In this document: piece after piece, positions 3,237 through 26,115 of the stretch
Position numbering within the stretch: position 1 is the stretch's first letter
How the letters are laid out: the number at the start of each line of letters is the position of its first letter
Assembly (NCBI GenBank): GCA_964640155.1
Contig: CAZXEQ010000001.1
Span: forward strand, 141,256-173,255
Source: an uncultured bacterium
Lineage (GTDB): Bacteria; Auribacterota; JACPWU01
DNA length: 32,000 nucleotides
Direction: 5' to 3'
Position numbers and translations under genes: made by a program
The notes under the pieces: model-generated
What the model saw: the letters and a program-made list of their open reading frames with translations, nothing else
Database searches by the model: none
What the model was told of the DNA's origin: nothing

Positions 3237-4004
3237 ATGCTTCTTGAAGGTAAAAACGCTTTAGTGTTTGGAGTGGCAAATAAACGCAGTATCGCTTGGG
3301 CCATTGCTCAAGCCCTTCATAATCATGGTGCTCGCTTAGCCTTGACTTATCAAGGTGAGCGTATTGAAGAAAATGTTCGCGAGCTTGCAAGTACACTTAA
3401 AGATCCTGTTGTACTCCCTTGTGATGTTTCAAAAGATGAAGAAATCGATACTGCCTTTCGTGATCTTTCAAAGTCCTTCTCTCATTTAGATATTTTAGTT
3501 CATTGCATTGCTTTTGCCCGAAAAGAAGAATTAGAGGGAGATTTTTTAAGTACCTCAAGAGATGGATTTCGTCTTGCACTTGATATTAGTGCCTATTCAT
3601 TACCTGCGATTGTCAAAAGGGCTCTTCCCTTATTGGAAAAAAGAGGAGGAAGCGTCATTGCCCTTACCTATCTAGGAGGTTATAAGGTTGTTCCAAATTA
3701 TAATGTCATGGGTGTTGCCAAAGCGGCTTTAGAAACTTCTATTCGATATCTCGCCTATGAATTGGGTGAAAAAAATATTCGAGTCAATGGAATTTCGGCA
3801 GGACCTGTTAACACTTTAGCCGCTCGAGGCATTGCAGGATTCAGTAAAATGCTCGATATTTATGAAAAACGAGCTCCCATGAAAAGAAATATCACAGCTT
3901 CAGAAGTAGGCGATGTGGGATTATTCTTAGCCAGTGATCTTTCTAAGTCTATGACGGGTGAACTACTATACGTGGATGCGGGATATCATATTACCGGCGT
4001 TTAA
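3237..4004 (+). CDS. fabI: Enoyl-[acyl-carrier-protein] reductase (NADH), FabI
   Basis: 255 aa. GVANKRSIAW dinucleotide-binding N-terminus. TYLGGYKVVPNYNVMGVAK carries the Tyr-x10-Tyr-x6-Lys spacing of E. coli FabI Y146/Y156/K163. ISAGP motif present. Confidence 0.9.
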   Translation: MLLEGKNALVFGVANKRSIAWAIAQALHNHGARLALTYQGERIEENVRELASTLKDPVVLPCDVSKDEEIDTAFRDLSKSFSHLDILVHCIAFARKEELEGDFLSTSRDGFRLALDISAYSLPAIVKRALPLLEKRGGSVIALTYLGGYKVVPNYNVMGVAKAALETSIRYLAYELGEKNIRVNGISAGPVNTLAARGIAGFSKMLDIYEKRAPMKRNITASEVGDVGLFLASDLSKSMTGELLYVDAGYHITGV

Positions 4005-4083
4005 ATAAAATATTAAAAATCAAATTGCAAATATCAAAAAAATAAACTCATTAATTTTGATTTTTAATATTTAATTTTTGATT
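4004..4083. repeat. Heptamer-array hairpin, AT flavour (element H)
   Basis: Left units aataaaa/tattaaa/aatcaaa/ttgcaaa/tatcaaa (CAAA at 4021/4028/4035). Right units tttgatt/tttaata/tttaatt/tttgatt (starts 4056/4063/4070/4077). 4008-4024 and 4056-4072 form a perfect 17-bp inverted repeat. Confidence 0.7.
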
Positions 4084-4098
4084 TATCCAGAGGGTTAT

Positions 4099-4863
4099 AT
4101 GCAACTTAAAGGTAAAAAAGGTGTGATTTTAGGCGTAGCCAATGCTAGAAGCATTGCGTGGGCCGTTGCTCAAAAGTTTCATGAAGAAGGAGCAAAATTT
4201 ACCATCACCTATCAAAATGATAGAATTGGAAGAGTTGTCAAAAACCTTGCCACCAAGCTTAATCACACACCCACCTTTGCTTGCGATGTCAATTCAGACG
4301 AACAAATTAATGCTCTATTCGAACATATCAAAAATGAATATGGTTCTATTGATTTTTTAGTCCATAGCATCGCTTATGCTCCCCCAAAAGATTTAAAGGG
4401 ACATTTCTACGAAGTTTCTAGAGAAGGTTTTCGAGAAACACTTGAAGTCAGCGCTTTTTCTCTAACAGCCCTGGCACAAAGAGCTGTTCCTCTCATGAAA
4501 AATGGGGGTAGTATCATCACCATGACTTCTATGGGTGGATGGAGAATTGTTCCTAATTATCATGTCATGGGAATAGCAAAATCAGCCTTAGAATCAAGTT
4601 TGCGTTATTTGGCAGCTGATCTTGGAACTAAAAATATTCGTGTGAATGGTATTTCTTCTGGACCCATTCGAACTGTTTCAGCCAAAGGCATTCGAAAATT
4701 TGCAAGCATGCTTAAAACACATAAAGAACGCTCCCCGTTACGTCGCACCTCCAAAGCCAGCGACACAGCACAAGCTGCTGTTTTTCTTTCCAGTGATCAA
4801 TCTACGAATATTACTGGCGAAGTTCTCTTCGTGGACTCTGGATATCATGTGATTGGAATATAG
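4099..4863 (+). CDS. fabI: FabI paralogue (enoyl-ACP reductase family), divergent active-site region
   Basis: ATG 4099 preceded by GAGGG (4090-4094); the track ORF starts at an upstream TTG at 4078. Roughly half the residues match FabI-1 by eye. PNYHVMGIAK keeps the Tyr/Lys pair, but the first Tyr position is Ser (MTSMGGWRIVPNY). Confidence 0.85.
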   Translation: MQLKGKKGVILGVANARSIAWAVAQKFHEEGAKFTITYQNDRIGRVVKNLATKLNHTPTFACDVNSDEQINALFEHIKNEYGSIDFLVHSIAYAPPKDLKGHFYEVSREGFRETLEVSAFSLTALAQRAVPLMKNGGSIITMTSMGGWRIVPNYHVMGIAKSALESSLRYLAADLGTKNIRVNGISSGPIRTVSAKGIRKFASMLKTHKERSPLRRTSKASDTAQAAVFLSSDQSTNITGEVLFVDSGYHVIGI

Positions 4864-4865
4864 TG

Positions 4866-4900
4866 CTCGTTCTGCGTAAAGCGTTTTGCGTCATGCGAAA
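4866..4900 (+). repeat. Heptamer half-array, GCGT flavour (element A)
   Basis: Five direct units ctcgttc/tgcgtaa/agcgttt/tgcgtca/tgcgaaa. CG at 4868/4875/4882/4889/4896 (exact period 7). Starts 3 nt after the fabI-2 stop. Confidence 0.75.
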
Positions 4901-4977
4901 AATCAGATTTTAAATCTCAAGAAATTTCAAGTAAATCGCCTCTCAATAAAAGCTGCATCGCTTTTAATCTTACAGAA

Positions 4978-7332
4978 CTAACATCCATCTCCATCACCCG
5001 GATAATGCCTGCTCGGAGTTGGTCCTGATCCTTGACCTTGGGGCTGATGATGTCCCTCAGGGCCTTGAGGTTGTTGAGGCTGACCATGAGGTAGCACCGG
5101 TTGATTATTCTGTTCGATTTGCTTATTTGCAGATTCCTTAGAAGCCTTTTGGCTCTCGGTATTCGGCACGGAAGGCCCACTCACAGACTCCCCCGTCGGA
5201 GACCACCACGAAGGCGGAGGTGGAGGAGTCTCAACCGGCTCTTCAGAATTTTGAGGCTGGGAAGGAGCACTTTGAGCGCTCGCCAAAGCCTTATTAGCAC
5301 ATGCCCTCGCTGCTCCAGCAGAGGACTCACATTGGGATTCAAAAAGTTCAATAGTATCTACTGTAGCACGCAGATCCTCAACTTTATCTTCTAGGGGCGC
5401 CATATCCACAGGGAAGGCAGGCAATGCGCCTGAAATGGAACTCGACAAGCCCGCCTGAAGTCGTGCTACAATCGCCGCTGCTTCTTGAATCAGAGCTTCT
5501 CCACCTTTCTCTGACTTGAGACTGCTTCCCAACATATTGGCTTGACCAATCAAAATTTGGGCCTCACTCTTGGACGCATAAAGATTTAGAATCCCAAGAG
5601 CTGCGCTTTTTGAACTTTCAACCTCAGCAACGAATTTTGGTATTTCTCCACCACTACCAGATATAGCGGAGACTTGAGCACTTGCTGCAGCAATAATTCC
5701 AGGCAAATCAGAAACTTGCGTTCTTAAACCCGCAATTTCAACTTCCAGATCCTGCGCTTGAGAGCGCAAACCTTGGATAGAAGCTAAAGAAGCTTTGGCT
5801 GATGCAGCCACAGATGCAGCAGCCGCCCCCTCTCCTTTTACCTCAGCCGCCGCCATTTCAGCCTTGTCTGCAGCTTGTACAGCTCTTTGGGCATCCTCTT
5901 GAGGGGTCGGAGAATTTTTAATATTTGCGGCAATGTCACAAGCCATATCCCTTGCCTGTCGGACATCTTCATAGGCGCTCGTTGCGACAGCCTCGCCCAA
6001 CAATACTGTGTTCAAAACCGATGGCACTAAATTTGAACCCTGGGAACCCAATTGACTCATCTGATTCATCTTTTGAGAAATCAGTTCAAATGTTGAAGCT
6101 GATTCATTCATCTTTACTTCTGCTTGTTGAGCTTCATTCAGTGCAGCCGTAATTTTTGCAATCACTCCCTGTGCTGCAGCCTCCGAAGCCTGTCCTTTAC
6201 TAATGAATGTTCGAGCCTGTTCAAGAGCTTTTTTAAATTCTTCATCTTCCTGACTCGTCTCTTTTGCTTCCTCCTTTTTCTCCTCGGCCTCTTCATCCTC
6301 CACATAAAATACAATGGTCACTGATTTGCGTTTCCCATCACTGTCCACACAAGTAAATTCCATGGAACGTGTCCCTGCAGTTGAGAATGTCACAGGAAAA
6401 GATACGTGATCGCCCATCGAAGGTCTTTTTTCAATTGTAATAGTCCGGTTATCCTCTGAATTAATAGAAGATGTAGATAATGTATACGGGGGTGCTCCTC
6501 CTACAAGAGAGAATTGAACATTTTTCATTTCGTTTTTCTTCAGATGTGTATCTCTATCTATTCTTTCCGCAGTCGCGAAGAAAAAAAACTCATGGTCGGG
6601 CTTGGCATCTTCATCTTCTGTCTCTTGGGGCTTGTCTTGTTCTTCTTTTTGAAATTCTTTATCCGTCATCTCATTAAGTTTTTTTAGTTTATTCCTAAGC
6701 TCATCCAATTGTTCATCATTTTTTCTGAATGCCTCCAGATTATCTTTTTGCTTTTGTTCCTGTTCTTGGACAACGCTATCATCGATTCCAAAACCTTTAG
6801 AGCCTTTCTTGGCCAGTTCATCCATTTCGCTCTTCCACTTACCATAAGCCCCATCTAGTTTTTGTTGATGTTCCTGTTTTAATTTTTTTGCTTCCGGCGT
6901 CGCATCCCAAGCTTGTCTCGTTTTTTCTCCCACTAACCACTTTCCCTTATCAATACACCAATCGGTAAAAGCCTTCGTTTGTGCATCATCCAGAGTTTGT
7001 TGCAAGTTATTATATTCTCTCGTTTTCGCATACATCTCTCGAGTGGTCTCTAACGCTCGAGTACTTGCTTTTGCCTCGTCTTTGAGACCACGGCGTTTTA
7101 TTTGAATCTGAATCTCTTTAGATTCTTTGAGCAATGCATTTCGATTTGCCTCCAACTTTTGAATTTCTGCCTCAGTCGTTTTGATCGCCTCTTGTCTTTT
7201 CGCAATGGCGTCTGCCAACTCCATTTTTTGGGGGACAGATTCAGCAATTCCAGTTGCCGAAATAGAAAAGAAACCAAAACATAACAAGATAATCTCTGCA
7301 AATCTTCTTGATCCATACATGAAATGCTTCAT
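4978..7332 (-). CDS. Secreted 784-aa multidomain protein: coiled-coil, Ig-like domain, Ala/Ser/Gln-rich helical region, Pro/Gln-rich tail
   Basis: Long uninterrupted ORF with AAAGGA Shine-Dalgarno 8 nt upstream of ATG 7332. N-terminal hydrophobic signal (AEIILLCFGFFSISATGIA). K/E-rich heptad-like segment. LVGGAPPYTLS resembles the GGxPPYT signature of dystroglycan-type/putative Ig domains. Tail contains PPPPPSWW and PQQPQGPEGHHQPQGQG and ends GDGDGC. Confidence 0.8.
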   Translation of the reverse strand: MKHFMYGSRRFAEIILLCFGFFSISATGIAESVPQKMELADAIAKRQEAIKTTEAEIQKLEANRNALLKESKEIQIQIKRRGLKDEAKASTRALETTREMYAKTREYNNLQQTLDDAQTKAFTDWCIDKGKWLVGEKTRQAWDATPEAKKLKQEHQQKLDGAYGKWKSEMDELAKKGSKGFGIDDSVVQEQEQKQKDNLEAFRKNDEQLDELRNKLKKLNEMTDKEFQKEEQDKPQETEDEDAKPDHEFFFFATAERIDRDTHLKKNEMKNVQFSLVGGAPPYTLSTSSINSEDNRTITIEKRPSMGDHVSFPVTFSTAGTRSMEFTCVDSDGKRKSVTIVFYVEDEEAEEKKEEAKETSQEDEEFKKALEQARTFISKGQASEAAAQGVIAKITAALNEAQQAEVKMNESASTFELISQKMNQMSQLGSQGSNLVPSVLNTVLLGEAVATSAYEDVRQARDMACDIAANIKNSPTPQEDAQRAVQAADKAEMAAAEVKGEGAAAASVAASAKASLASIQGLRSQAQDLEVEIAGLRTQVSDLPGIIAAASAQVSAISGSGGEIPKFVAEVESSKSAALGILNLYASKSEAQILIGQANMLGSSLKSEKGGEALIQEAAAIVARLQAGLSSSISGALPAFPVDMAPLEDKVEDLRATVDTIELFESQCESSAGAARACANKALASAQSAPSQPQNSEEPVETPPPPPSWWSPTGESVSGPSVPNTESQKASKESANKQIEQNNQPVLPHGQPQQPQGPEGHHQPQGQGSGPTPSRHYPGDGDGC

Positions 7333-7339
7333 TGGAGTA

Positions 7340-7356
7340 ATCCTTTCATAAAGGAT
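7340..7356 (-). promoter_or_regulatory. Hairpin pairing the Shine-Dalgarno of the 784-aa gene
   Basis: atccttt-cat-aaaggat: perfect 7-bp stem with a 3-nt loop. On the mRNA the AAAGGA Shine-Dalgarno is one arm of the stem. Confidence 0.3.
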
Positions 7357-7560
7357 GACATATCACTAAGTTTTTATGATGGAAGCTTGGGTGAATTTGA
7401 GAATGATCTGTATTAATAAAGAGGGTTAAAAGGACCACGGCCATCAGCAGACTTGAAAAGGATTTCAGCATGCTTTTGCCTTTTTTGGATAAGACTTCAA
7501 CAGAAGGTATTATACCACAATTTAGGAAAGCAGATTAAATAGTGAACATCGCAAAGCAGC

Positions 7561-8811
7561 TTAATCTACAAATCTCTTTGCGACAAGCGTAGCATTATGT
7601 CCACCAAAACCAAGGGAGTTAGAAAGAGCAACATCTACTTTTAATTGGCGAGCTTGATTTGGAACATAATCTAAATCACAATCTGGATCAGGCGTTTCAT
7701 AATTAATGGTCGGAGGGACAAAACCTTCCTGCATCGCTAAAGCACAAACGATAAGTTCCATAGATCCTGCTGCACCGAGGAGATGCCCCATCATGGATTT
7801 TGTCGAACTGATAGGAACTTTTTTCGCGTAATCTTTAAAAACGCGCTTAATTGCCATTGTCTCGAGCTTATCATTCAAAGCAGTCGAGGTTCCATGTGCA
7901 TTGATATAATCAACGTCTTCTGGATTAAGACCTGCATCATCTAGAGCCATTTTCATGCAGCGTGATGCCCCTTCTCCATCCGGAGCTGGAGCAGTCATAT
8001 GATAAGCATCGCCGGTTAATCCATAACCTACCACTTCACAATAAATTTTAGCTCCTCGTTTCTTTGCATGTTCTAATTCTTCTAACACAAGAATTCCAGC
8101 ACCTTCACCCATCACGAAACCATCGCGATCACGATCAAAGGGACGGCTGGCTCTTTGAGGCTCATCATTGCGTGTAGAAAGTGCGTGCATTGCACAAAAA
8201 CCACCTAATCCTAAATTGGTAATGGCGGCCTCTGCCCCACCTGCAATCATGGCATCTGCATCACCATGAAGAATCAGTCGAGCGGCTTCTCCAACGGCAT
8301 GAGCTGATGTTGCACAAGCAGTCGCAATACAAGAATTTGGGCCACGAGCCCCTGTTTGAATAGAAATTTGTCCCGGTGCCATATTGACAATCAACATAGG
8401 GATTAAAAAAGGAGACATTCGGGAAGGACCTTTTTCCAACATAATCAAATGTTGTTCTTCAACCGTGGTGATTCCACCAATTCCAGAACCCACAAGAACA
8501 CCAATACGCTCTGGATTGGAATTTGGAACATCTAATTTTGCATCTTCCAAAGCCATCTTTGCAGCAACCACAGCAAAACGCACGAAAGGATCCATACGTT
8601 TTAAATCTTTAGGACCAATCCATTTTGAACCATCAAAATTTTTGACTTTGCAAGCAATGCGCGTCTCAAACTTGCTGACATCAAAATCCGTAATCGGAAC
8701 AGCACCACTGCGCCCGTTAACAAGATTATCCCAAAATTCCTTAAGAGTGTTTCCTACAGGAGAAACAACTCCCATTCCTGTAATAACCACTCTTCTGTTT
8801 TTCATGATCAT
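7561..8811 (-). CDS. fabF: 3-oxoacyl-ACP synthase II (FabF)
   Basis: [11 protein letters not shown] active-site Cys. NAHGTST and GHLLGAAG His motifs. The start is probably ATG 8811 (AAGGA 9 nt upstream) rather than the track's TTG at 8844. Confidence 0.9.
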
Positions 8812-8863
8812 AATTTTAAATCCTTCAACAGTTCCTAGTTTCAAAACTTGAAACTGTTTTTTG

Positions 8864-8915
8864 AAACAAAAAGGGCATTTCTCACTCTTTTTTAAAAGTC
8901 AGAAGAGAAATGCCC
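8864..8915 (-). terminator. Intrinsic terminator/attenuator between acpP and fabF
   Basis: Perfect 11-bp stem gggcatttctc (8873-8883) / gagaaatgccc (8905-8915). It is followed on the minus-strand RNA by UUUUUGUUU (8872-8864). Starts 12 nt after the acpP stop. Confidence 0.55.
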
Positions 8916-8926
8916 AAATTGATTTA

Positions 8927-9172
8927 TTAAGCGCTTTTTGACTTCTGCCTTGTTTCAATATATTTAACGGCATCGCCAACAGTCTTAAGCTTTTCTGCTT
9001 CTTCATCAGGAATTTCAGCGTCGAACTCTTCTTCAAAGGCCATGACCAGTTCTACTGTATCCAAAGAATCAGCTCCCAAATCTTCCACAAAGGAAGCTTC
9101 AGTAGTTACTTCTTCTGGATTAACCCCCAACTGCTCGACAATAATTTTTTTAACTTTTTCTTCGACTGACAT
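8927..9172 (-). CDS. acpP: Acyl carrier protein
   Basis: 81 aa, acidic. [12 protein letters not shown] phosphopantetheine-attachment Ser motif. GGAGG 8 nt upstream. Confidence 0.95.
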
Positions 9173-9246
9173 TCAATGACCCTCCTCTTTTCGCTAAAAT
9201 TTCCTAATAAATTATAGTAACTTTTACTCTTCTATCCTACTCTTTT

Positions 9247-9987: not shown

Positions 9988-10001
9988 GCATACCTCCTTT
10001 A

Positions 10002-10078
10002 TTCGTAACACGTACTGCGTCGTGCGTGATGCGTTTTGATTTTACGCATCACGCAGTACGCACAACGCTTAACGTTTT
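10002..10078. repeat. Heptamer-array hairpin, GCGT flavour (element B)
   Basis: Left units ttcgtaa/cacgtac/tgcgtcg/tgcgtga/tgcgttt (CG at 10004/11/18/25/32). Right units acgcatc/acgcagt/acgcaca/acgctta/acgtttt (CG at 10045/52/59/66/73). 10023-10034 pairs perfectly with 10044-10055 (12 bp). Confidence 0.8.
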
Positions 10079-11988: not shown

Positions 11989-11991
11989 GGG

Positions 11992-13032: not shown

Positions 13033-13044
13033 AACAACCTCAAA

Positions 13045-13131
13045 TGAGTTATAAGTTGTAAGTCATAAGTCTTAAGTTAAAAAAAATAAAAAGTACGTCC
13101 GATTGGCCTACTACTTATGACTTATGCTACT
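13045..13131. repeat. Heptamer-array hairpin, TAAGT flavour (element E)
   Basis: Left units tgagtta/taagttg/taagtca/taagtct/taagtta (AGT at 13047/54/61/68/75). Inverted units ctactta/tgactta (ACT at 13113/13120), then degenerate. 13059-13070 pairs perfectly with 13113-13124 (12 bp). Confidence 0.75.
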
Positions 13132-13135
13132 TTCA

Positions 13136-13315: not shown

Positions 13316-13453
13316 AAAAACCTCCTTTAAATACGTATCATCATTTAAAAATACTTGGGCGCGATTGTAGCATACGCTTTTAAAATTACCATTAAAAACC
13401 GTCGATCATAGTGCCTGATATGTCGTGCGCAAAAAATGCACACACAAGACGCT

Positions 13454-14621: not shown

Positions 14622-14687
14622 ATTTCCTCTTCTAAAGCTAGTATTGTAAGGGGTGAGCACATGTGAGTAAAGAAAGATTTGTTAAAA

Positions 14688-14754
14688 CAGTAATTCGTAC
14701 ATCGAGTTAGTAGTTCGTTTTTTCGAACTACCAATTGCTAACTACGAATTACGG
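14688..14754. repeat. Heptamer-array hairpin, TARTT flavour (element F)
   Basis: Right units cgaacta/ccaattg/ctaacta/cgaatta (14724-14751). Left units taattcg/tacatcg/agttag/tagttcg (14691-14717). Inner stem is 8 bp around a T6 loop. Outer stem 14690-14699 / 14743-14752. Confidence 0.7.
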
Positions 14755-15319
14755 TTTTGTAAAACGATATTTCAGTTTGACCATACTTTCTTGAATCTTG
14801 TTTCTCTAAGGATCCCCACTTTGTAGGACTTGCCCATCCCGAAGGATGCTCAATGACCAACAGCCCTTCTTTGAATAAAATTTTCTCTATTTTTTCCCAT
14901 AATTCGTTAATCCATGCTTTTTCATAAAGTCGATAAGGAGGATCCGCAAAAACCAATTTAAACTGGCTATTCTTTCTTATCAAAAAATCTAAAGCCCGAA
15001 AAGCATCCAGACATAGAACATTTGCATTTTCAAAATGTAATGTTTCTAAATTAGTTTTTATAATATCTGAAACTTTTCTGTCTTTTTCAACAAAATGAAC
15101 ATGCTGGGCTCCTCGAGACAGAGCTTCTAATCCAAAAGCACCAAATCCGGCATAAAGATCTAAAACAGAAACCCCTTCAACAAAAGCACCCAAAATATTA
15201 AAGATAGCTTCGCGCACACGATCTGCCGTTGGACGAACAGAATTTGTCCCAAGTGTTTTAAGACGATGTCCTCTAGCAATACCTGAAATAATTCTCATAT
15301 TCAATTCCCATTTTTTCAT
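14738..15319 (-). CDS. rsmD: 16S rRNA (guanine966-N2)-methyltransferase RsmD family
   Basis: VLDLYAGFGAFGLEALSRGA SAM-binding motif. FADPPY catalytic motif. The start overlaps the recG stop (ATGA); an alternative ATG lies at 15298. Confidence 0.85.
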   Translation of the reverse strand: MKKWELNMRIISGIARGHRLKTLGTNSVRPTADRVREAIFNILGAFVEGVSVLDLYAGFGAFGLEALSRGAQHVHFVEKDRKVSDIIKTNLETLHFENANVLCLDAFRALDFLIRKNSQFKLVFADPPYRLYEKAWINELWEKIEKILFKEGLLVIEHPSGWASPTKWGSLEKQDSRKYGQTEISFYKTVIRS

Positions 15320-17412: not shown

Positions 17413-17494
17413 AAGGCTATCCTGTATTTATAGTTGACATTCCAAGCTTGATATGAGAGATTAACGCCTCTCATTTGAAATTCAGGAGTGTATT

Positions 17495-17725
17495 ATGGCA
17501 AAAATATGTGAAGTTTGCGGTAAAAAACCAAGTGCAGGTAACAAAATCTGCCGACGCGGTCTTGCAAAACGTAAAGGTGGAGTGGGTGAGAATCTAACCG
17601 GTATCACAAAACGTAGATTCATGCCTAATCTTCAAAGAGTCAAAGCTATCATTAATGGCGCTATCAAGACTATTCGTATTTGTACCCGCTGCCTCAAGGC
17701 AAATAAGGTTTTAAAAGCAGCCTAA
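17495..17725 (+). CDS. rpmB: 50S ribosomal protein L28
   Basis: 76 aa, basic. MAKICEVCGKKPSAGN...KRRFMPNLQ matches the L28 N-terminal signature. AGGAG 6 nt upstream. Confidence 0.85.
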   Translation: MAKICEVCGKKPSAGNKICRRGLAKRKGGVGENLTGITKRRFMPNLQRVKAIINGAIKTIRICTRCLKANKVLKAA

Positions 17726-17734
17726 CAATTGTCA

Positions 17735-17755
17735 TACGTAGTGCGTCTTGCGTTC
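17735..17755 (+). repeat. Heptamer half-array, GCGT flavour (element C)
   Basis: Units tacgtag/tgcgtct/tgcgttc with CG at 17737/17744/17751. Starts 10 nt after the rpmB stop. Confidence 0.6.
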
Positions 17756-17819
17756 TAAGATGTTTTGCTTAGAGCGTGTACTCCGGTATATTTCCAATCA
17801 TTTAAAATTCTTTGCTACA

Positions 17820-17941
17820 GTTTGCTCAAAAAGTCCCAAAATGCAAGGCACATGCGAGCGACTGCGGAGGCGTACGTTTGATGGTACGCCGCACAAAGAA
17901 GCGAAGTATGTAACGAAGTAGATTGGGCTTTTTCAGCAAAC
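17820..17941. other. About 120-nt compound hairpin between convergent rpmB and gspF
   Basis: gtttgctcaaaaagtcccaa (17820-17839) pairs with ttgggctttttcagcaaac (17923-17941): 19 bp with one mismatch and one bulge. Inner GC stem ggcgtac/gtacgcc at 17869-17875 / 17884-17890. Confidence 0.6.
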
Positions 17942-17943
17942 TA

Positions 17944-19107: not shown

Positions 19108-19127
19108 AAAACTAATTCGAACCTTCT

Positions 19128-20858
19128 TTATATTTTAATATCTTTGATGACTAATTGAACCTTCCTCTGACCCCCATATTCATTAATGCCAATCTCATAA
19201 ACCGCATGAAAGGGGGTATTTTGAGAAATTTTAGAAGCCCACTGGGCCATACCAAAAGCAATTCCTTCTAAAGGGGTTCCCCTTTTTTGTCGAATCCATA
19301 GCTTAAGATGATCCTTCCCGACCAGTTGACAAGGTTTATCTAAAACCAATCCTTGAGTCATAAAAAGAGGAACAGGATTCTCTTGCCCAAACGGCGACAG
19401 CATCTCCAATTGTTCAGCAAGATCTAAAGAAATATCTGAAGCAGAAAGTTCAAAATCAATTTCCCATCGTGGAATTAAATTTTCGGCTGTCAAAATTTTC
19501 TTCGCGTATTGATTAATTCGCTCTCGAAAAAGAGAAATTTTATCTTTTTCAATTTTGATTCCCGCAGCATAAGCATGTCCCCCATAGCCTGTCAGTAAAT
19601 CTTCGCATTGTTTTAATGCCTCGCAAAGGTGGAACCCTCGAATACTTCGAGCTGATCCCTTACTTAAATCTCCATCCGCAGAAATAATAAATGTGGGACG
19701 ATAACGAAGCCTGAGAATGCGAGAAGCTACAATGCCAATCACTCCTAATGGCCATTGATCCTTATGAAGCACCAAAACCCAATCTTCATTAAATTCACTA
19801 TTTTCTTCCAAAATTTGAATGGCTTCTTCTACGGTTTGTTGCTCAATCGTCTGACGTTTTCGATTACTGACATCCAAATTTTGAGCCAAAGCTTGAGCTT
19901 CACCTGAATCTTGGGTTAAAAGCAAGCGAATCGCATCATAGGCTGTTCCAACACGTCCTGCCGCATTCAAGCGTGGAGCAATACGAAAACCAATATCAAC
20001 CGTCGTCCAACTTCTGTTTTGAATTCCAATTTCTTTTAAAAGAGCAGCTAAACCCAAACAAGTGGTTTTAGACAATCTTTCCAGTCCCCGCTTTACAATA
20101 ATTTTATTTTCTCCCTTTAAGGGAACTAAATCAGCAACCGTTGCAATGGCCACACGATCTAGATAATCTTTCAAATCAATTTTTTTCGCCCATAATGCAC
20201 CTTGTTTTAACCCCTCTTTTAGAATTCCATGTGCAAATTTAAAAGCAACTCCTGCAGCACACAAAAATTTAAAAGATTCATTATCAGAAGCAAGTCGCGG
20301 ATGGATGACAGCTAAACAATTGGGTAAAGTTGTTTTAAGTTCATGATGATCCACAACAATGACATCTAATCCTTTCGAGGTTGCTTCCCCAATTTCATCA
20401 AAAGCACTTCCTCCGCAATCAACCGTAATAAGAATACGTACGTTTTCACGTACGCATTTAGCAATCGCTTCTCGACTGATGCCATACCCCTCTGTCACAC
20501 GATCTGGGATATAGGGTTGGGCATTGATTCCTATTTTGGAAAAAAGATTACAAAGAAGCGCTGTGCCTGTAATTCCATCGACATCATAATCTCCATGCAC
20601 AAGAATTTTTTCCTGGTGTTCAATGGCTTGAAAAATTCTCTCAACCGCTTTTTTCATTCCAAGAAAAAGAAAAGGGTCCGAAAGATCTTTTAAACGTCCT
20701 TCAAGACAAAACTTGCCTTCCTCGTGCGTCTTAATTCCACGATCAAAAAGGAGTTGAGCAAGAATGGGAGAAATACCAAGAGATTTAGACAAAACCGAGG
20801 CTTCATCTGTACGAGATTTGACTTGCCACAACTTTGAAGAATCCAAAATTTCTTTCAC
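19128..20858 (-). CDS. recJ: Single-stranded-DNA-specific exonuclease RecJ
   Basis: DHH-family motifs HGDYDVDGITG, ITVDCG, VVDHHE and GGHAYAAG. 576 aa. GTG start 1 nt after the gspE stop. Confidence 0.9.
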   Translation of the reverse strand: MKEILDSSKLWQVKSRTDEASVLSKSLGISPILAQLLFDRGIKTHEEGKFCLEGRLKDLSDPFLFLGMKKAVERIFQAIEHQEKILVHGDYDVDGITGTALLCNLFSKIGINAQPYIPDRVTEGYGISREAIAKCVRENVRILITVDCGGSAFDEIGEATSKGLDVIVVDHHELKTTLPNCLAVIHPRLASDNESFKFLCAAGVAFKFAHGILKEGLKQGALWAKKIDLKDYLDRVAIATVADLVPLKGENKIIVKRGLERLSKTTCLGLAALLKEIGIQNRSWTTVDIGFRIAPRLNAAGRVGTAYDAIRLLLTQDSGEAQALAQNLDVSNRKRQTIEQQTVEEAIQILEENSEFNEDWVLVLHKDQWPLGVIGIVASRILRLRYRPTFIISADGDLSKGSARSIRGFHLCEALKQCEDLLTGYGGHAYAAGIKIEKDKISLFRERINQYAKKILTAENLIPRWEIDFELSASDISLDLAEQLEMLSPFGQENPVPLFMTQGLVLDKPCQLVGKDHLKLWIRQKRGTPLEGIAFGMAQWASKISQNTPFHAVYEIGINEYGGQRKVQLVIKDIKI

Positions 20859-20859
20859 A

Positions 20860-22323
20860 CTACCCTACCACTCTCAAAACCTCTTCACGTGTTGTTACAT
20901 TTTGTACAGCTTTTTCAAGACCGGCAGCTTCTAATCCTACAATTCCCTTATCTGTCATGGTCTGTCTAAACGCTTGAAGATCTTTTTTCTCATAAATCAA
21001 TTTTCTAAAATCTTCATCTAAAACTAAAAGTTCAAAAATACCCGTACGCCCTCTAAATCCTGTGGAAAAACAAGTCGAACAACCTTTCATTCCACAATTT
21101 TGACAGATGCATCTAACCAGTCTTTGTGAGATTACTGCCATTAAAGCAGAAGCAATCAAATAAGGTTCAATACCAATATCTAAAAGACGTGTTACAGCAC
21201 CTGGAGCATCTGTGGTATGAAGCGTGGCTAAAACCAAATGCCCTGTCAAAGCAGCCCGTACTGCAATTTGAGCAGTCTCTTGATCACGAATTTCTCCCAC
21301 TAGAATAACATCAGGATCTTGGCGCAAAAGAGAACGTAAACCTTGAGCGAAGGTAAGTCCAAGTGCCGGCTTCACCTGCATTTGAGTAATCCCTTCTAAT
21401 TTGTATTCCACAGGATCTTCAATGGTCATGACATTTTTACGAGACAAATCTAATTCTGAAATAAAAGAATAAAGCGTGGTTGTTTTGCCACTTCCGGTAG
21501 GACCAGTGACTAAAATCATTCCATTGGGTCTATTCATCAAGGGCTGTAAAATTTGATTATCTTTAGAAGACATTCCAAGTTCTGGAGCTCGAATCAAAAG
21601 ATTGTCCCGATCTAAAAATCTTAAAACCAGACGCTCTCCCTGAACGGTCGGAACTACCGACAAACGAATTTCAATTTCTTTATCTGCTGATTTCATTGAA
21701 AATCGTCCATCTTGAGGTTGTTGCTTTTGCGTCACATCCAGTTTGGCCATCACTTTCAGACGAGCCACCATCCCCTCCTGAATTTCTCGAGGAAGTTTAT
21801 GAGCTTCATGCAAAAAACCGTCTCGACGATACAGAACCGCCAAATAATCTGTCTTAGGATGAAAGTGAACATCGGTTACTTTTTCCTGAGTTGCTTCCCT
21901 TAAAATCGAATTAACCATTTTGACAATCGGAGCATCACTTCCCTGTCTGATTAAATCCTCACCTGAAAAAATAGTTGAGCTGTTTTCAGAAAAATTCTGT
22001 CCCTGAAGAAGACCTTCGACATTCTGCAAATTAGACTCCATCAGTTTTCTCAAAAGGTGTTCTATCTTTTTCAAATCCATTAACACAAGATCAATAGAAA
22101 CATTCAACGCTTGAGTCAGATTATCAATAGGATAAAAAGGATGAGGTTTAGCAACCGCAAGTTTTAATCGATTATTTTCTAACGACACGGGAAGAAGACG
22201 AAAAGTCCAAAAATACTCTAAAGGAACTTTTTTAAAAATGTCTCGAGGAATTTTGTCTAGAGTAATGTCTTCGAGAATCGGAAGTGATGAATCTGTCATT
22301 AAATATTTATACCTTTCAATCAA
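20860..22323 (-). CDS. gspE: Type II secretion ATPase GspE family
   Basis: Walker A GPTGSGKTTT. Asp box and Walker B (DPDVILVGEIRD). His box (ATLHT). Tetracysteine CICQNC...GCSTC. The start is uncertain: TTG 22323 or ATG 22299. Confidence 0.9.
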   Translation of the reverse strand: MIERYKYLMTDSSLPILEDITLDKIPRDIFKKVPLEYFWTFRLLPVSLENNRLKLAVAKPHPFYPIDNLTQALNVSIDLVLMDLKKIEHLLRKLMESNLQNVEGLLQGQNFSENSSTIFSGEDLIRQGSDAPIVKMVNSILREATQEKVTDVHFHPKTDYLAVLYRRDGFLHEAHKLPREIQEGMVARLKVMAKLDVTQKQQPQDGRFSMKSADKEIEIRLSVVPTVQGERLVLRFLDRDNLLIRAPELGMSSKDNQILQPLMNRPNGMILVTGPTGSGKTTTLYSFISELDLSRKNVMTIEDPVEYKLEGITQMQVKPALGLTFAQGLRSLLRQDPDVILVGEIRDQETAQIAVRAALTGHLVLATLHTTDAPGAVTRLLDIGIEPYLIASALMAVISQRLVRCICQNCGMKGCSTCFSTGFRGRTGIFELLVLDEDFRKLIYEKKDLQAFRQTMTDKGIVGLEAAGLEKAVQNVTTREEVLRVVG

Positions 22324-22349
22324 AGCAAAAAGACAAAACCTTCTCAGCT

Positions 22350-24017
22350 CTATTGCTTCAAGGCCTTTTGTTGACTACTTTCTACTTCACTCTTATCACT
22401 GATGTTTGACTTTACTTTAATTCCTTGAACCGTCTGTAAGTCTTCTCTTTTCTTTTCCGTGATTGACTTTAATTTTTCTTCAGAATCTAAAATATGAGGG
22501 CAAATAAAAATGAGAAGATTTGTTTTAATGGTTTGATCTGTTTTTCGAGTAAAAGGGATTCCTAAAATAGGAATATCTCCCAGAATAGGAACTTTCTGGA
22601 TAAGTTTTCCTTTTCTTTCTCGAATCAGTCCCCCAATCACAGCTGTTTGAGAATCTTTAACAGTAATCATTGTTTTAGCTTCGCGTTTGGAAGTTTCCAC
22701 AGCACCTTCAAAAGATTGCCCTATCACATCTTCTACTTTCTGATGTACTTGCATTCGAACCATGCCATCTGGAGAAATATGAGGCGTTAATTGAAGCGAA
22801 AGACCAATGTCTTTAAACTCAAAAGTCCGCACTGTGCTTCCCTCAGGAGTTACTTGAGAGTTTTTGATAAAAGCCCTATTTTCTCCGACTAAAATTTCAG
22901 CTTCGGTATGATCTGTTGTTAAAATTTGAGGAGTCGAAAGAATATTAATGTCTGAATGATTGCGAAAAGCATTTACCAAAATTCCCAGCCTAGGAATTTG
23001 AAGAGTCCCAATTTGAATCGTATCATGTAAATAAGCAGCACTTGTCCCTTCCAGCTTTCCACCGGTCACAACATTATGAACAATATCATCTGCTTGATTG
23101 ACTCGGTCTCCGCCAAAACCTTCTTGAGAACCATAAAGAGCACCTTCAATTGCAGCCCATTCAATCCCCAATTTTTCCAGCTTGTCTAAATTAACTTCTG
23201 CAATCAAAACTTCAACCAGAACCTGCTGGCGTTTGACATCTAAAGAACGAATGGCTTTTTTGAGCAAGGGATATCTTTCTCTTGAAGTATGAATCAAAAG
23301 TGAATTGGTCATGGCATCTGCCACCACAAAAGAAGCATCTTTAGTTTGTGATTCTGGACGAGATTCCATCATTTTCTTCTCTTGTTCAAAAAGCTGAGTC
23401 AAAACTTGTGCGATGCCTTCTGCATCTGCATTTTTAACCGGATACACATAAACATGGGGAACACTTCCAAGTCCTTTTTTATCAAGATCTAAAATAATTT
23501 TCTGAATACGCACCATGTTGCTTGCTGTATCTGCCACAATTAAAGTATTGGTCGATGCGTATGCTGAAACATGTCCTCCTCTGGTCAAGAAAGAACCAAT
23601 GATTACAGAAACTTTTTCAGCGTTCCCATACTTTAATGGAATAATTTGTGTTACAAAATGATCCCCTGAGGCCATCATTTCGCCACTCAACACCATCTGC
23701 GTACTTTCTTGGCGAGCTGCATCCACCGGAACAACCTTTGTTACTTTTCCAGAAGAAACCATGGCATAACCACTTGTTTTTAGAGCAGCTTCCAGAACTT
23801 GGCGAACTTCAGCTAAAGGAATTTTGCTGGGGCCGGAAATACTCACCAATCCTTTAATATTTTCATCCACAATAAAATTTTCACCTGTGATCTCGCTGAC
23901 AAATTTAATCACAACACGCAAATCAGTATCTTCAAAATTCATAGAGACCAGATTGTCTTCTGCATAACCCATCCAAAAATAATTTAATAACATCATGCTA
24001 ATAAGAAATTTTTTCAT
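22350..24017 (-). CDS. gspD: Secretin GspD family
   Basis: Signal peptide MKKFLISMMLLNYFWMGYA. N0-like segment (NFEDTDLRVVIKFVSEITGENFIV). C-terminal secretin domain (ILSTPQILTTDHTEAEILVG, VPILGDIPILGIPF). Confidence 0.9.
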   Translation of the reverse strand: MKKFLISMMLLNYFWMGYAEDNLVSMNFEDTDLRVVIKFVSEITGENFIVDENIKGLVSISGPSKIPLAEVRQVLEAALKTSGYAMVSSGKVTKVVPVDAARQESTQMVLSGEMMASGDHFVTQIIPLKYGNAEKVSVIIGSFLTRGGHVSAYASTNTLIVADTASNMVRIQKIILDLDKKGLGSVPHVYVYPVKNADAEGIAQVLTQLFEQEKKMMESRPESQTKDASFVVADAMTNSLLIHTSRERYPLLKKAIRSLDVKRQQVLVEVLIAEVNLDKLEKLGIEWAAIEGALYGSQEGFGGDRVNQADDIVHNVVTGGKLEGTSAAYLHDTIQIGTLQIPRLGILVNAFRNHSDINILSTPQILTTDHTEAEILVGENRAFIKNSQVTPEGSTVRTFEFKDIGLSLQLTPHISPDGMVRMQVHQKVEDVIGQSFEGAVETSKREAKTMITVKDSQTAVIGGLIRERKGKLIQKVPILGDIPILGIPFTRKTDQTIKTNLLIFICPHILDSEEKLKSITEKKREDLQTVQGIKVKSNISDKSEVESSQQKALKQ

Positions 24018-24047
24018 ATCTTCTAATACGATTCCAAGTTTAAGGTT

Positions 24048-24917
24048 CTATGTTCTTTCTTTTTGCCCTTCAACCAAATAAACCAATTGCATTTGATGTG
24101 AACCTCGTTTTAAATCGATTTTGAGGTCCCCTTGTTCTAAATTTTGATAAAACGCCATTAAAGAACTTAAATCTGTTACTTCTCGTCCATTGATTTTTTC
24201 AATGATATCCCCTGTTCTAAAACCTAATTTTTGAATGGCACTTTCGGGCATCACATCCAGCAATTCATACCCCAAGGATTTTCCTTCTTCTGCATAAGGA
24301 ATGAATCGAACCCCTTTCATCACATCTGCCCAATGCGTCAACATATCTTGAACCATCGCAAATTCTAACTTCATGGCATTGACATTTAAATCCTTTTTCC
24401 CAATTTCACTCACAGGAGAAGGTTTGATTGGGTCAGAAAAACTGGCTTGTGGTAAATCTCTTCCTTCTATTTTACTTGCGGTCGAATGTGTCGTTGAGGA
24501 TCTTTCTAAACGAACTTTCTCTGAGCCATTCTCTATTTCCAATGAATTTTCAAGAATACTTTGAACAGTCCATCCTTCAATTTTTTCTCCACTTTTAACC
24601 AATTTTTGTTTCCCCTGATATTCAATAATGGCAAAAAGCTTTTCTCTAACACCTGCTGTTCCCTTAAATTGAAAAGGGATAGAAGATAAATCAAAAGAGC
24701 GATTAACCAGTAAAGGTTCATCTAAATTAAATTGAGACGCTAAAGAAATTTCATTCGAGGAGGGGTCTTTCACAACCTTTACATCTTGAATGGATTTTTG
24801 ATAAGAATTCCCAGATATCCAAGATTTAACTAATAACCCACCGCTTATAATTAAAACAATACAAAGCAAACAGTTAAGACTCGAAAATATTTTTTGAACC
24901 ATCCAAGGTTTTATCAT
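24048..24917 (-). CDS. GspC-like inner-membrane protein with C-terminal PDZ domain
   Basis: N-terminal TM segment (LNCLLCIVLIISGGLLV). PDZ-like C-terminus (GYELLDVMPESAIQKLGFRTGDIIEKINGREV). Sits immediately upstream of gspD. ATG 24917 with GGAGGG upstream (the track start is TTG 24932). Confidence 0.6.
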   Translation of the reverse strand: MIKPWMVQKIFSSLNCLLCIVLIISGGLLVKSWISGNSYQKSIQDVKVVKDPSSNEISLASQFNLDEPLLVNRSFDLSSIPFQFKGTAGVREKLFAIIEYQGKQKLVKSGEKIEGWTVQSILENSLEIENGSEKVRLERSSTTHSTASKIEGRDLPQASFSDPIKPSPVSEIGKKDLNVNAMKLEFAMVQDMLTHWADVMKGVRFIPYAEEGKSLGYELLDVMPESAIQKLGFRTGDIIEKINGREVTDLSSLMAFYQNLEQGDLKIDLKRGSHQMQLVYLVEGQKERT

Positions 24918-25305
24918 TTTGTTTCCCTCCAACCACCTTACCTGAATATTTTCTTATTAAAAAAAATGTTAATACAACAAAACTTGCTCCCAGTGTATCC
25001 ATCATCCAATCCAAACCGCTTGCTTCTCGTGTAGGAACCCAATACTGATGGATTTCATCCGATAATCCATAAAGGCTTGCAAAAGAGATTGTTGCAAGAG
25101 CTGGATGTTCCCGAATCTTTTGAATCTGATCAATCACAGCCATGCGATAGAACAAAAGAGCCAAGACAGCATATTCTACAAAATGCTCAATTAAGTCAAT
25201 CCCTTTAAATCCTGGTAAACCCTGAGGGAACTGAAGAGAGGAAACATAATAAATGATAGCGCAATATGCAAGAACAAATAAACGCCTTAACGCAAGCAAA
25301 CTCAT
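24874..25305 (-). CDS. VanZ-like membrane protein
   Basis: Four hydrophobic segments. SDEIHQYWVPTREASGLDWMMDTLGA matches the VanZ-family D-E-x-H-Q...R...D signature. The start overlaps the upstream stop (ATGA). Confidence 0.7.
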   Translation of the reverse strand: MSLLALRRLFVLAYCAIIYYVSSLQFPQGLPGFKGIDLIEHFVEYAVLALLFYRMAVIDQIQKIREHPALATISFASLYGLSDEIHQYWVPTREASGLDWMMDTLGASFVVLTFFLIRKYSGKVVGGKQNDKTLDGSKNIFES

Positions 25306-26027
25306 CGCCCTATTTCCAATCGAACAGCTAAAATTTCGGGAAGACCTGCCTTTCTTATCTTGCTTTGAGTTTTTCGAAAATCATAGGGAACTCTTCGAAA
25401 ACGTACAGATCCCTGTTCATCATCAAAAAGACAGTAAGAAGCTCGTGTGTCTCTATCTCGTGGCTGACCTACGCTTCCTACATTCACAATATACTTTGTT
25501 TGAGATTCCAAAGAAAAATCCAAAGCTTGCGTTTTCCCAACTTCTCCATCCTGTAATGTAAAAATAAGAGGAACATGTGAATGACCAATAAACAGAATTT
25601 TCTCCTGAAGCAACTCAAATGTGTACGAAGCATCCTCTTCTGTAAAAAGATATTCCCAAGCGTCTGGAACATTCAAAGAGGCGTGTACCAAAGAAAAAGA
25701 AGTACCACGATAAACCAAAGGGAGACTTGATAAGAACTTTACATCTTCAGAAGTAATTTGATCCATCGTCCATAGAGCAGCTTCACGTGCATGACTGTTA
25801 AAGTACTCAATATTTGTTTTTTGACAAACAGCCCAATCATGATTGCCTGCAACAATTTTGGCGGGGAGTTGTCGAATCTTGTCAATGCAAGGACGGGGAT
25901 CAGCACAATATCCAACAATATCCCCCAAACAAAGATAGGCACCTGCTCCTTCTTGCTGTGCGTCTTCTAAAACAGCATTCAGAGCTTCTAAATTTGAATG
26001 AATGTCAGAAATAATGGCGTATAGCAT
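25302..26027 (-). CDS. Calcineurin-like (PPP/ApaH-type) metallophosphoesterase
   Basis: ISDIHSN (DxH), LGDIVGY (GD), AGNHD (GNHD), IGHSH and GSVGQPRD motifs in canonical order. Confidence 0.8.
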   Translation of the reverse strand: MLYAIISDIHSNLEALNAVLEDAQQEGAGAYLCLGDIVGYCADPRPCIDKIRQLPAKIVAGNHDWAVCQKTNIEYFNSHAREAALWTMDQITSEDVKFLSSLPLVYRGTSFSLVHASLNVPDAWEYLFTEEDASYTFELLQEKILFIGHSHVPLIFTLQDGEVGKTQALDFSLESQTKYIVNVGSVGQPRDRDTRASYCLFDDEQGSVRFRRVPYDFRKTQSKIRKAGLPEILAVRLEIGR

Positions 26028-26031
26028 AATT

Positions 26032-26115
26032 CACGTCGTGCGTTGTACGTCATGCGTCATAATTATATTCTCGCGTTTTTCATTTTCACGCAGAACGCTA
26101 GACGCATTACGTTCT
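26032..26115. repeat. Heptamer-array hairpin, GCGT flavour (element D)
   Basis: Left units cacgtcg/tgcgttg/tacgtca/tgcgtca (CG at 26034/41/48/55). 28-nt spacer. Right units acgcaga/acgctag/acgcatt/acgttct (CG at 26089/96/103/110). Confidence 0.8.

Follow-up and report, generated by a model that had tools for sequence, protein, structure and literature searches.

What are the short repeats of 7 nucleotides (nt) that lie behind one stop codon after another in a stretch of DNA from an uncultured bacterium of the Auribacterota? The stretch, positions 141,256 to 173,255 of contig CAZXEQ010000001.1, is 32,000 nt long and is referred to here as the window. An initial annotation, made from the sequence alone, described seven intergenic loci with tandem heptamers, five of them having a second, inverted set of units, and held that the loci are alike in architecture and not in sequence. 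This description was borne out. The heptamer arrays are real and, in five of the seven loci, the inverted second arm was found independently by an inverted-repeat search. We conclude that the loci belong to a known, unexplained class of intergenic heptanucleotide arrays, in inverted-pair form, and are not a new kind of element. The reading that we favour, with moderate confidence, is that these degenerate arrays, arranged as inverted pairs, act as RNA hairpins behind stop codons, without a U-tract, which turn over in 7-nt steps and are tolerated or mildly useful. The seven loci are listed below.

4003..4084, forward strand: fabI1-fabI2 spacer element, consisting of AT-rich inverted arrays with arms at approximately 4003-4040 (AAATATC-type) and 4051-4084 (TTAATTT-type).
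4864..4900, forward strand: single-arm array at the end of fabI2, with five units (TGCTCGT, TCTGCGT, AAAGCGT, TTTGCGT and CATGCGA).
10001..10076, reverse strand: fabD-fabG hairpin with, in transcript sense, a 5' arm of five NNTGCGT units (10074-10044) and a 3' arm of five ACGCANN units (10034-10004).
13043..13126, reverse strand: rpmF-plsX element with, in transcript sense, two CAUAAGU units (13126-13113) and five ACUUNNN units (13079-13043).
14684..14758, reverse strand: rsmD-coaD hairpin of TARTTNG-type units, decayed on one arm.
17733..17777, forward strand: array at the end of rpmB, with three GCGT units (CATACGT, AGTGCGT and CTTGCGT), at a convergent gene end.
26031..26114, reverse strand: acyP-pde hairpin with, in transcript sense, a 5' arm of four NNNGCGU units (26114-26088) and a 3' arm of four ACGNNNN units (26058-26034).

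Gene identities and distances to stop codons were as initially given, and the registers described for CG, AGT, ACT and CAAA were each exact on rechecking. The fabI1-fabI2 element overlaps the fabI1 stop codon (4002-4004) and ends 15 nt upstream of the fabI2 ATG. Here, Tandem Repeats Finder (TRF) reports period-7 arrays at 4008-4038 and 4051-4084, a 22-nt inverted repeat is 95% complementary, and the arms have autocorrelation z scores of 2.8 and 3.3, with 7 as the best period. At the end of fabI2, where genes converge, the array starts 1 nt past the stop codon. It has CGT and GCG four times each at period 7, an autocorrelation z score of 4.1, and two matches to the motif GCGTNNNGCGT. The 5' arm of the fabD-fabG hairpin contains the fabD stop codon (10049-10051) and the last eight fabD codons, the loop is AAAAUCAAA, and the fabG Shine-Dalgarno sequence is 5 nt past the 3' arm. 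The arms are 31 nt long and 77% complementary, with z scores of 4.4 and 4.8. At rpmF-plsX the arms are unequal, with two units and five, and the ACUUNNN array stops just short of the plsX Shine-Dalgarno sequence. AGT occurs five times, and TAA and AAG four times each, at period 7; TRF also reports this period, and the locus holds inverted repeats I10 and I17. The middle of the element (approximately 13112-13078) contains a small stem and a U8 run, with a weak fold (z -1.4). The 5' arm of the rsmD-coaD hairpin overlaps the last rsmD codons (stop codon 14738-14740). Its 16-nt arms are 94% complementary, and the autocorrelation of both is highest at period 7 (z 2.5 and 4.2); the period-7 signal of the whole spacer is weak (0.29). 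The rpmB array starts 8 nt past the stop codon, includes a match to GCGTNNNGCGT, and has an autocorrelation z score of 3.2. It had been described as single-armed. There is indeed one GCGT array, but the locus is not structure-free, as the last unit forms the 5' side of a 10-base-pair (bp) hairpin, GCGUUCUAAG/CUUAGAGCGU. Finally, the 5' arm of the acyP-pde hairpin starts 6 nt past the acyP stop codon, 29 nt of loop separate the arms, and the 3' arm ends 7 nt upstream of the next ATG. CGT and ACG each occur four times at period 7, and the arm z scores are 2.7 and 3.4.

The initial annotation had called for a period-7 scan against shuffled controls, and this supports it. Across the whole window there are 10 period-7 runs (an identical 3-mer in at least four copies), compared to 0.23 in dinucleotide shuffles. 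There is no excess at periods 4, 5, 8 or 10-12; period 6 gives three runs and period 9 one. We then restricted the scan to intergenic DNA, taken as the spacers plus 30 nt on each side (4.3 kb). This contains six period-7 arrays against a shuffle mean of 0.03 (maximum of one in 300 shuffles), approximately 200-fold above expectation, and no such array at periods 5, 6, 8, 9 or 10. Strong arrays in the window are all in spacers or at the edges of open reading frames (ORFs). The motif GCGTNNNGCGT has 10 matches in the window, compared to 0.10 expected, and all are within the four GCGT loci. The best autocorrelation period is 7 in 12 of 12 arms whose limits were set post hoc (z 2.5 to 4.9), the AT-rich fabI1-fabI2 and rsmD loci included.

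Unit anatomy was derived from 26 GCGT units. Note that CG is fixed by how the units were defined. Hence, while CGT is invariant, this is by construction for CG and an observation for T (25 of 26). Position 3 is T in 18 of the 26 units, and position 4 is R in 24. Positions 1 and 2 are random, with a pairwise identity of 0.26-0.27, and of 0.15-0.20 between neighbouring units. Since the free positions are no more alike in neighbours, and CGT is invariant, the arrays are not young slippage copies. A microsatellite made by slippage has near-identical copies; window arrays, at 0.15-0.20 identity in their free positions, do not. The cores are TGCGT, TAAGT, AAATATC and TARTTNG, and GGG is found in none of the window units. 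A G-quadruplex reading is thus ruled out, because every unit lacks G-runs.

Two inverted arrays would let the transcript, or either DNA strand, fold into a ladder-like stem-loop. In such a ladder, the cores of 4-5 nt would pair and the 2-3 free nt of each unit would form small internal loops. Predicted folds have this appearance at fabD-fabG, with stems of 3, 4, 5 and 12 bp and internal loops of 2-3 nt between them (minimum free energy -37.3 kcal/mol, z -4.9), and at acyP-pde, with stems of 4-5 bp and internal loops of 1-3 nt (-24.3 kcal/mol, z -1.6). In both ladders, the stems are the paired cores and the symmetric internal loops of 1-3 nt are the free positions. The corresponding values are -28.8 kcal/mol (z -4.4) for rsmD-coaD, -23.8 kcal/mol (z -2.2) for rpmF-plsX, and -13.8 kcal/mol (z -1.1), a weak fold, for fabI1-fabI2. 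The single arm at the end of fabI2 has no significant fold (z +0.9). Hence, folding each locus, as initially suggested, gave a divided result. Support is strong for fabD-fabG and rsmD-coaD, but the AT-rich fabI1-fabI2 copy and the single-arm copies, at the ends of fabI2 and rpmB, fold no better than shuffled sequences.

We next compared the window with related genomes. The host is a metagenome-assembled genome (MAG) of the Planctomycetes-Verrucomicrobia-Chlamydiae (PVC) group, within which Auribacterota is a candidate phylum. Its PlsX is 97% identical to that of a contig from a Candidatus Auribacterota MAG (relative L001, the same at species level), and 82% identical to that of a groundwater MAG labelled Chlamydiae (relative L002). 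Comparisons are limited to these two relatives, and a FabD-based metagenome scan found no others. Beyond the seven loci in 32 kb, further arrays are present in 25 kb from L001 and L002. Coding DNA of the window and L001 is 91-97% identical, with 0-2 gap columns, and third codon positions are 77-91% identical. The rpmF-plsX heptamer spacer is 72% identical, with 37 gap columns, and the fabD tail plus fabD-fabG heptamer spacer 78% identical, with 24. On these alignments, heptamer arrays turn over faster than synonymous sites do, and units are gained or lost. The repeat-free yceD-rpmF spacer (13316-13453) is 95.6% identical, with two gap columns. Because it is more conserved than third codon positions, this spacer is probably constrained, and probably holds a promoter or other constrained signal upstream of rpmF.

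The two relatives also differ in what the same spacers contain. In L001, fabD-fabG has a shorter homologous hairpin, in which, by eye, both arms are missing their innermost unit and the loop differs. The L001 rpmF-plsX spacer has an array on one side only (CCATAGT CAACAGT CGATTGT ...) and does not fold significantly (z +0.1). In L002, heptamer hairpins occupy the fabD-fabG and rpmF-plsX spacers, and a single-arm array is between fabI1 and fabI2. The cores, GTGAAGA/TTTTCAT, TCGT/ACGA and NNNGCGT, are unrelated to those of the window at the same spacers. L002 has at least six hairpin loci (GTCGTTC, TCGT, GAAATTC, ACG/CGT, TGAGTCG and CAGAATT) in addition to the GTGAAGA-type hairpin at fabD-fabG. 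Orthologous spacers keep the architecture with unrelated cores. A related observation concerns FabD, whose last 8-11 residues are repeat-encoded and differ in the three genomes: ...TLSVVRTA in the window (10049-10075), ...TLCVVRSA in L001 (3460-3487) and ...IVESEECKMKN in L002 (13095-13136). Hence, repeat turnover rewrites the C-terminus of an essential enzyme.

Such data bear on the possibility that the palindromes are mobile, or dispersed by a transposase of the REP-associated tyrosine transposase (RAYT) type, and insert after stop codons. Known examples are repetitive extragenic palindromic (REP) sequences, bacterial interspersed mosaic elements (BIMEs) and miniature inverted-repeat transposable elements (MITEs). 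The copies are indeed extragenic and palindromic, and several have the GCGT core in common. However, only 4-5 nt per unit are shared, and the copies lack common termini, inverted terminal repeats and target duplications. Unit number differs between copies, different cores occupy the same spacers in relatives, and numerous unrelated cores are found within genomes, each at period 7. The genes of the window include no transposase or RAYT gene. We consider dispersal of this sort highly improbable and reject it, given that the copies have no common sequence beyond the core and no defined ends.

In the window, the initial claim of stop codon proximity stands, with all seven elements overlapping a stop codon or starting within approximately 10 nt of one. 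It does not extend fully to L002, where two arrays are in divergent (5') spacers; one is a hairpin between rpmB and recG and the other is in a second divergent spacer. Stop codon proximity is therefore a strong tendency and not a rule. None of the three divergent spacers of the window has an array. Arrays take up the space from a stop codon to the following ribosome-binding site, or lie where gene ends converge, and some extend into the final codons of the gene before them. Two-armed copies in the window fill their spacer and end 5-17 nt before the next start codon, or approximately 60 nt in the case of rsmD-coaD. Among inverted pairs from all loci that have both flanks within 150 nt, 40 are co-directional, 19 convergent and 10 divergent. 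In TGCGT-type metagenome hairpins, among the matches listed, 47 flanks are stop-adjacent and 21 start-adjacent. It had also been noted that the stop-proximal arm reads U-R-M-G-U in transcript sense whichever strand the gene is on. For two-armed copies this is automatic; a sequence followed by its own reverse complement reads alike on both strands, and so the claim is empty for palindromic copies. Only the two single-arm copies are informative, and both read GCGU in the sense orientation of the preceding gene.

The 3' location raises the possibility that the hairpins are intrinsic terminators or attenuators that need no U-tract, bidirectional at convergent ends and leaky inside operons. We regard this as very unlikely. 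Consistent with it are the location of arrays at gene 3' ends, including the 19 inverted pairs between convergent genes, and a U-run after the 3' arm in 14% of TGCGT metagenome hairpins, among the matches listed, compared to a 3% background. In locus L136, an A-run borders one side and a U8 run the other, and the loop of the rpmF element carries its small stem and U8. Conversely, two-armed window copies lie inside essential operons (fab genes), with a Shine-Dalgarno sequence or ATG within 5-17 nt, and some copies occupy divergent 5' spacers. As initially described, what follows the two-armed hairpins in transcript sense is a Shine-Dalgarno sequence and not a U-tract. Intrinsic terminators have a GC-rich stem and an immediate U-tract; the two-armed copies do not, and the U8 of rpmF is inside a loop. 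As a general reading, the classical terminator is rejected, since enrichment of U-runs is modest and 86% of the metagenome matches listed lack one. Canonical terminators are nevertheless used by this organism. Just past the acpP stop codon (8860-8906, reverse strand) is an intrinsic terminator, with stem GGGCAUUUCUCUUCU...AGAGUGAGAAAUGCCC followed by UUUUUGUUU. A second hairpin is upstream of fabF, and the acpP 3' region folds with -36.3 kcal/mol (z -4.3). The GC stem and U-run at acpP indicate that ordinary stem-plus-U terminators are used inside the fab cluster. A simple terminator and promoter scan flagged no heptamer hairpin in transcript sense; note that it also missed the acpP terminator, owing to its loop-size limit.

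To understand how widespread the arrays are, we surveyed plsX-centred loci from 80 other genomes (81 loci with the window, 1.36 Mb), which constitute an unbiased sample. Non-coding DNA of this census contains 49 period-7 arrays; each of the other periods between 4 and 13 gives 1-6. Only nine period-7 arrays are coding, although non-coding DNA is 11% of bases. The density, in arrays per 10 kb of non-coding DNA, is 22 in the window clade, 12.7 in photosynthetic cyanobacteria, 3 in other PVC genomes and 0.65 in Firmicutes. Inverted pairs are also frequent at this period, with 21 loci at period 7 and 2, 6, 0 and 2 at periods 5, 8, 10 and 11. An inverted partner accompanies 45% of 149 non-coding arrays. 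L002, Kiritimatiellales, Armatimonadota and cyanobacteria all have clear inverted heptamer hairpins, and every such hairpin has a core of its own. In cyanobacterial loci L063 (11036-11138) and L067 (11113-11212), inverted heptamer arrays are in the plsX-fabH spacer; spacers of the same fatty-acid gene cluster are thus occupied in these cyanobacteria and in the window clade.

A metagenome search with the pattern (TGCGTNN)2...(NNACGCA)2 matched at least 120 stretches. Those listed are genuine extended arrays, on contigs of 43-74% GC. The 80 listed loci L081-L160 (405 kb) contain 159 period-7 arrays, compared to 6-14 at other periods. Of these arrays, 64 have other cores, and several of the 64 are in inverted pairs. 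Hairpins with the TGCGT core, for example at L100 328-436, L109 1906-1985 and L142 11153-11247, have up to eight units per arm. Within a single array of L081-L200, successive units often have the same two free nucleotides, which pair with those of the opposite arm; window arrays are degenerate instead. The same contigs also carry inverted heptamer pairs with other cores. Hence, copies exist well beyond the window, as inverted heptamer arrays in both relatives, other PVC genomes, Armatimonadota, cyanobacteria and metagenomes.

Our preferred interpretation, of tolerated or mildly useful hairpins, takes the observed anatomy, period-7 specificity, cross-phylum spread, fast turnover and conserved architecture with unrelated cores, and adds a putative history. 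Arrays would grow, shrink and be replaced by replication slippage in 7-nt steps, and replacement may also involve palindrome-centred rearrangements. They would persist mainly at gene 3' ends, where a stem-loop could be useful or at least harmless. The putative role is likely one of blocking 3' exonucleases, of pausing or leakily terminating transcription, or of insulating one cistron from the next; we think a sequence-specific switch less probable.

Several results weigh against this interpretation. The rpmF-plsX hairpin is absent from the near-identical L001, and so is not strictly maintained there. Single arms, at the ends of fabI2 and rpmB and between fabI1 and fabI2 of L002, keep an intact core without a partner. 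The GCGT core is common to four of the seven loci, which would not be expected from random seeds that slip locally, and uniform neutral decay cannot give a conserved core with random free positions. Selection at the level of RNA is not demonstrated either. In the window clade and a few others, the sense fold is more stable than the antisense fold for 11 of 13 hairpins, as G-U pairing might suggest. In 40 co-directional pairs from all loci the count is 16 versus 23, with no advantage for sense folding, and we reject the G-U asymmetry as a sign of RNA-level selection. Lastly, arm order is biased. Across L001-L209 and the window, the G-rich or G/T-rich arm tends to come first on both strands. Among pairs outside the selection imposed by the search pattern, CGT-first exceeds ACG-first by 9 to 1, and G-first exceeds C-first by 28 to 10. 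Viral contigs show the same direction (7 versus 2), with too few cases to stand alone. Three unexplained features, namely core conservation, a preference for one core within a genome, and the order of the arms, keep a model with a periodic binding factor alive.

In that model, the units are phased binding sites for a factor that binds single-stranded nucleic acid with a 7-nt footprint, for instance a cold-shock-domain, S1/OB-fold or KH protein. Much like TRAP on (G/U)AG repeats, the factor would bind the emerging 5' arm and so decide whether the hairpin forms, and single arms would be plain sites. The invariant CGT, biased positions 3 and 4, and random free positions have the look of a binding array. 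Retention of the core in arms that lack a pairing partner, a genome-level core preference (the 10 matches to GCGTNNNGCGT against 0.1 expected) and the arm-order counts, viral contigs included, fit as well. So does the strand bias of single arrays beside one stop codon, which have more G than C on the sense strand in 26 cases and fewer in 13 (p 0.053), in agreement with G-rich Xanthomonas repeats that sit downstream on the coding strand (PMC4692102). Binding by S1, Csp or CsrA was proposed for TAACTGA repeats of Beggiatoaceae (MacGregor 2015). Nonetheless, we think a dedicated factor unlikely. Unrelated cores coexist (GCGT, TAAGT, AT-rich and TARTTNG in the window, and seven in L002) and are swapped at orthologous spacers, evolution faster than at synonymous sites is unusual for functional binding sites, and no candidate protein is among the window genes.

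At the other extreme, the arrays could be a functionless mutational by-product of heptamer slippage and template switching, wherever insertions are tolerated. This would account for hypervariable spacers, the loss of arms between near-identical strains, the two against five units at rpmF-plsX, and arrays that spill into ORF ends and alter C-terminal tails. The lack of sense/antisense folding asymmetry in the broad sample is also in line, as is a heptamer excess that, in the parts of Mrazek 2007 relayed by a later source, is general across bacteria (PMC4679880). We nevertheless find this account quite unlikely. Core positions are conserved while spacer positions are randomised, one core recurs at four loci, arm order is biased, and divergent spacers are under-represented, both in the census and in Xanthomonas (Rehm et al. 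2015, PMC4692102).

A bolder possibility, which we offer as speculation with the odds well against it, is that heptamer-ladder hairpins are one widespread, core-independent class that reflects an undiscovered molecular ruler. Members of the class would share the exact 7-nt step, free spacers around a conserved core, a core preferred in each genome, and a G/T-rich first arm. A conserved protein that binds single-stranded RNA or DNA and reads it in a 7-nt register could be this ruler, as could a dedicated repeat-generating activity. If true, this would unify the short tandemly repeated repetitive (STRR) sequences of cyanobacteria, Xanthomonas GGGAATC, Beggiatoa TAACTGA, and the TGCGT family found here and in many metagenomes. 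A ruler protein might then control hairpin formation behind stop codons.

The window has 38% GC and carries a conserved housekeeping block, with the following genes.

Forward strand: fabI1 and fabI2, tandem paralogues.
Reverse strand: fabF, acpP, fabG, fabD, fabH, plsX, rpmF, yceD, coaD, rsmD and recG.
Forward strand: rpmB.
A type II secretion cluster split by recJ, then a VanZ-like gene, a phosphoesterase gene, acyP and bcp.
Two genes for FG-GAP repeat proteins, and two large ORFs without a Pfam match.

The paralogues fabI1 and fabI2 (3237-4863) are approximately 50% identical to each other, and both are conserved in L002 (16272-17850). The spacer between them has a heptamer array in the window and in L002, with differing cores. 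One ORF without a Pfam match (4978-7332, reverse strand) encodes 784 amino acids, with a low-complexity C-terminus rich in Gly, Pro and His, and includes a stretch of 50.7% GC (5001-6000). The other (3-3005, reverse strand) encodes at least 1001 amino acids and runs off the window. Rfam 15, at the gathering score, has no match in the window, and there are no tRNAs; a curated RNA family is accordingly rejected as the identity of the heptamer elements. One further structure lies at 17819-17942 (reverse strand), 3' of gspF and between the convergent rpmB and gspF genes. An 18-nt inverted repeat, 89% complementary, flanks 88 nt with an inner GC-rich hairpin (GGCGUAC...GUACGCC), and the region folds with -45.7 kcal/mol (z -4.5). 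It has no heptamer periodicity; a large terminator and a small structured RNA are both possible.

How do the loci relate to known systems? Heptanucleotide STRR sequences were reportedly described in cyanobacteria by Mazel and colleagues in 1990. The initial comparison with them is apt. Like STRRs, the window arrays are tandem 7-nt intergenic units, at many loci per genome and in several unit families, and inverted pairs also occur in cyanobacterial census loci L063, L067, L077 and L079. Unlike STRRs, which are often long and nearly perfect, window arrays have 3-5 units and are degenerate at 2-3 positions, and their unit sequences and host phylum differ. The other initial comparison, with REP sequences and BIMEs, fails on sequence, since the window copies share just a core of 4-5 nt, whereas REPs have a genome-wide consensus of approximately 35 nt, are RAYT-linked, and lack 7-nt periodicity. 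The likeness is one of place and form, as both are imperfect palindromes outside genes, found at gene 3' ends or separating cistrons. REP sequences and BIMEs can shield upstream mRNA from 3' exonucleases, and this is the functional analogy that we favour. DNA uptake sequences of Neisseria and Haemophilus are a genome-specific, over-represented short motif, often found as an inverted pair just downstream of genes. Unlike the window elements, these have one copy per arm, no 7-nt period and a known driving force, namely biased DNA uptake.

The inverted heptamer combination was initially thought to be undescribed. This was incorrect, as it is published for Xanthomonas (PMC4692102) and Geobacter metallireducens (PMC2700814). 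In Xanthomonas, Rehm et al. (2015) described (GGGANTN)n heptamers with conserved positions 1-4 and 6, of which 89-93% are intergenic; mean distances are 28 nt to the ORF upstream and 160 nt to the following one (PMC4692102). There are 70-75 convergent inverted pairs per genome, and repeats are rare between divergent genes. The same gene neighbours are found in two species, with variable length and sequence, and no function was found. Our arrays are similar to these, and to Nostoc GGGGA(C/T)T, in having a core, two free positions and approximately four units (PMC4692102). They are degenerate in the way of the heterogeneous (GGGANTN)n repeats, two arrays of the same unit converge at close range in five of the seven loci, and the elements are near the upstream stop codon (0-10 nt) and rare in divergent spacers. 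Unlike the Xanthomonas repeats, the window cores (TGCGT, TAAGT and AT-rich) have no G-runs, so that G-quadruplex or i-motif formation, the focus of Rehm et al., is impossible. Several unrelated cores also coexist in the window genome, and the host is of an uncultured PVC-group lineage. In G. metallireducens, Aklujkar et al. (2009) reported dozens of loci with four or five heptamers in tandem (GGACCGG; MTYCTGA), listed inverted five-heptamer sites, and drew one class as two-stranded paired sites (PMC2700814). Unlike the window copies, many GGACCGG copies are intragenic, and were read as binding sites for a global regulator; the cores also differ.

Heptanucleotide repeats are, according to those portions of Mrazek 2007 that other papers relate (PMC4679880, PMC4692102), the most abundant class of long simple repeats in most prokaryotic genomes. 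As reported there, the authors proposed an origin by slippage and suggested 7 nt as the length that contacts DNA polymerase. The window shares the over-representation of period 7 in non-coding DNA. The repeats of Mrazek 2007, as far as these accounts describe them, are near-perfect tandems, whereas window units are not recent copies and half of the arrays are inverted pairs. In a Nostoc preprint, heptamer repeats affect reporter expression, with no mechanism given, and our literature search for a later paper that explains heptamer repeats found none. STRRs have been known since 1990. Because the window cores are unable to form G-quadruplexes, the only structural explanation proposed for the best-studied case is removed. 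TGCGT-type hairpins on contigs of 43-74% GC, an inverted-pair form in approximately half of all arrays, and a preferred arm order suggest that the scattered reports understate both the breadth and the uniformity of the heptamer class. We conclude that the loci are the PVC-lineage counterpart of cyanobacterial STRRs and Xanthomonas (GGGANTN)n repeats. What they add is the lineage, a very high density, cores that are not G-rich, a turnover faster than that of synonymous sites, and an orthologous architecture built from different sequences.

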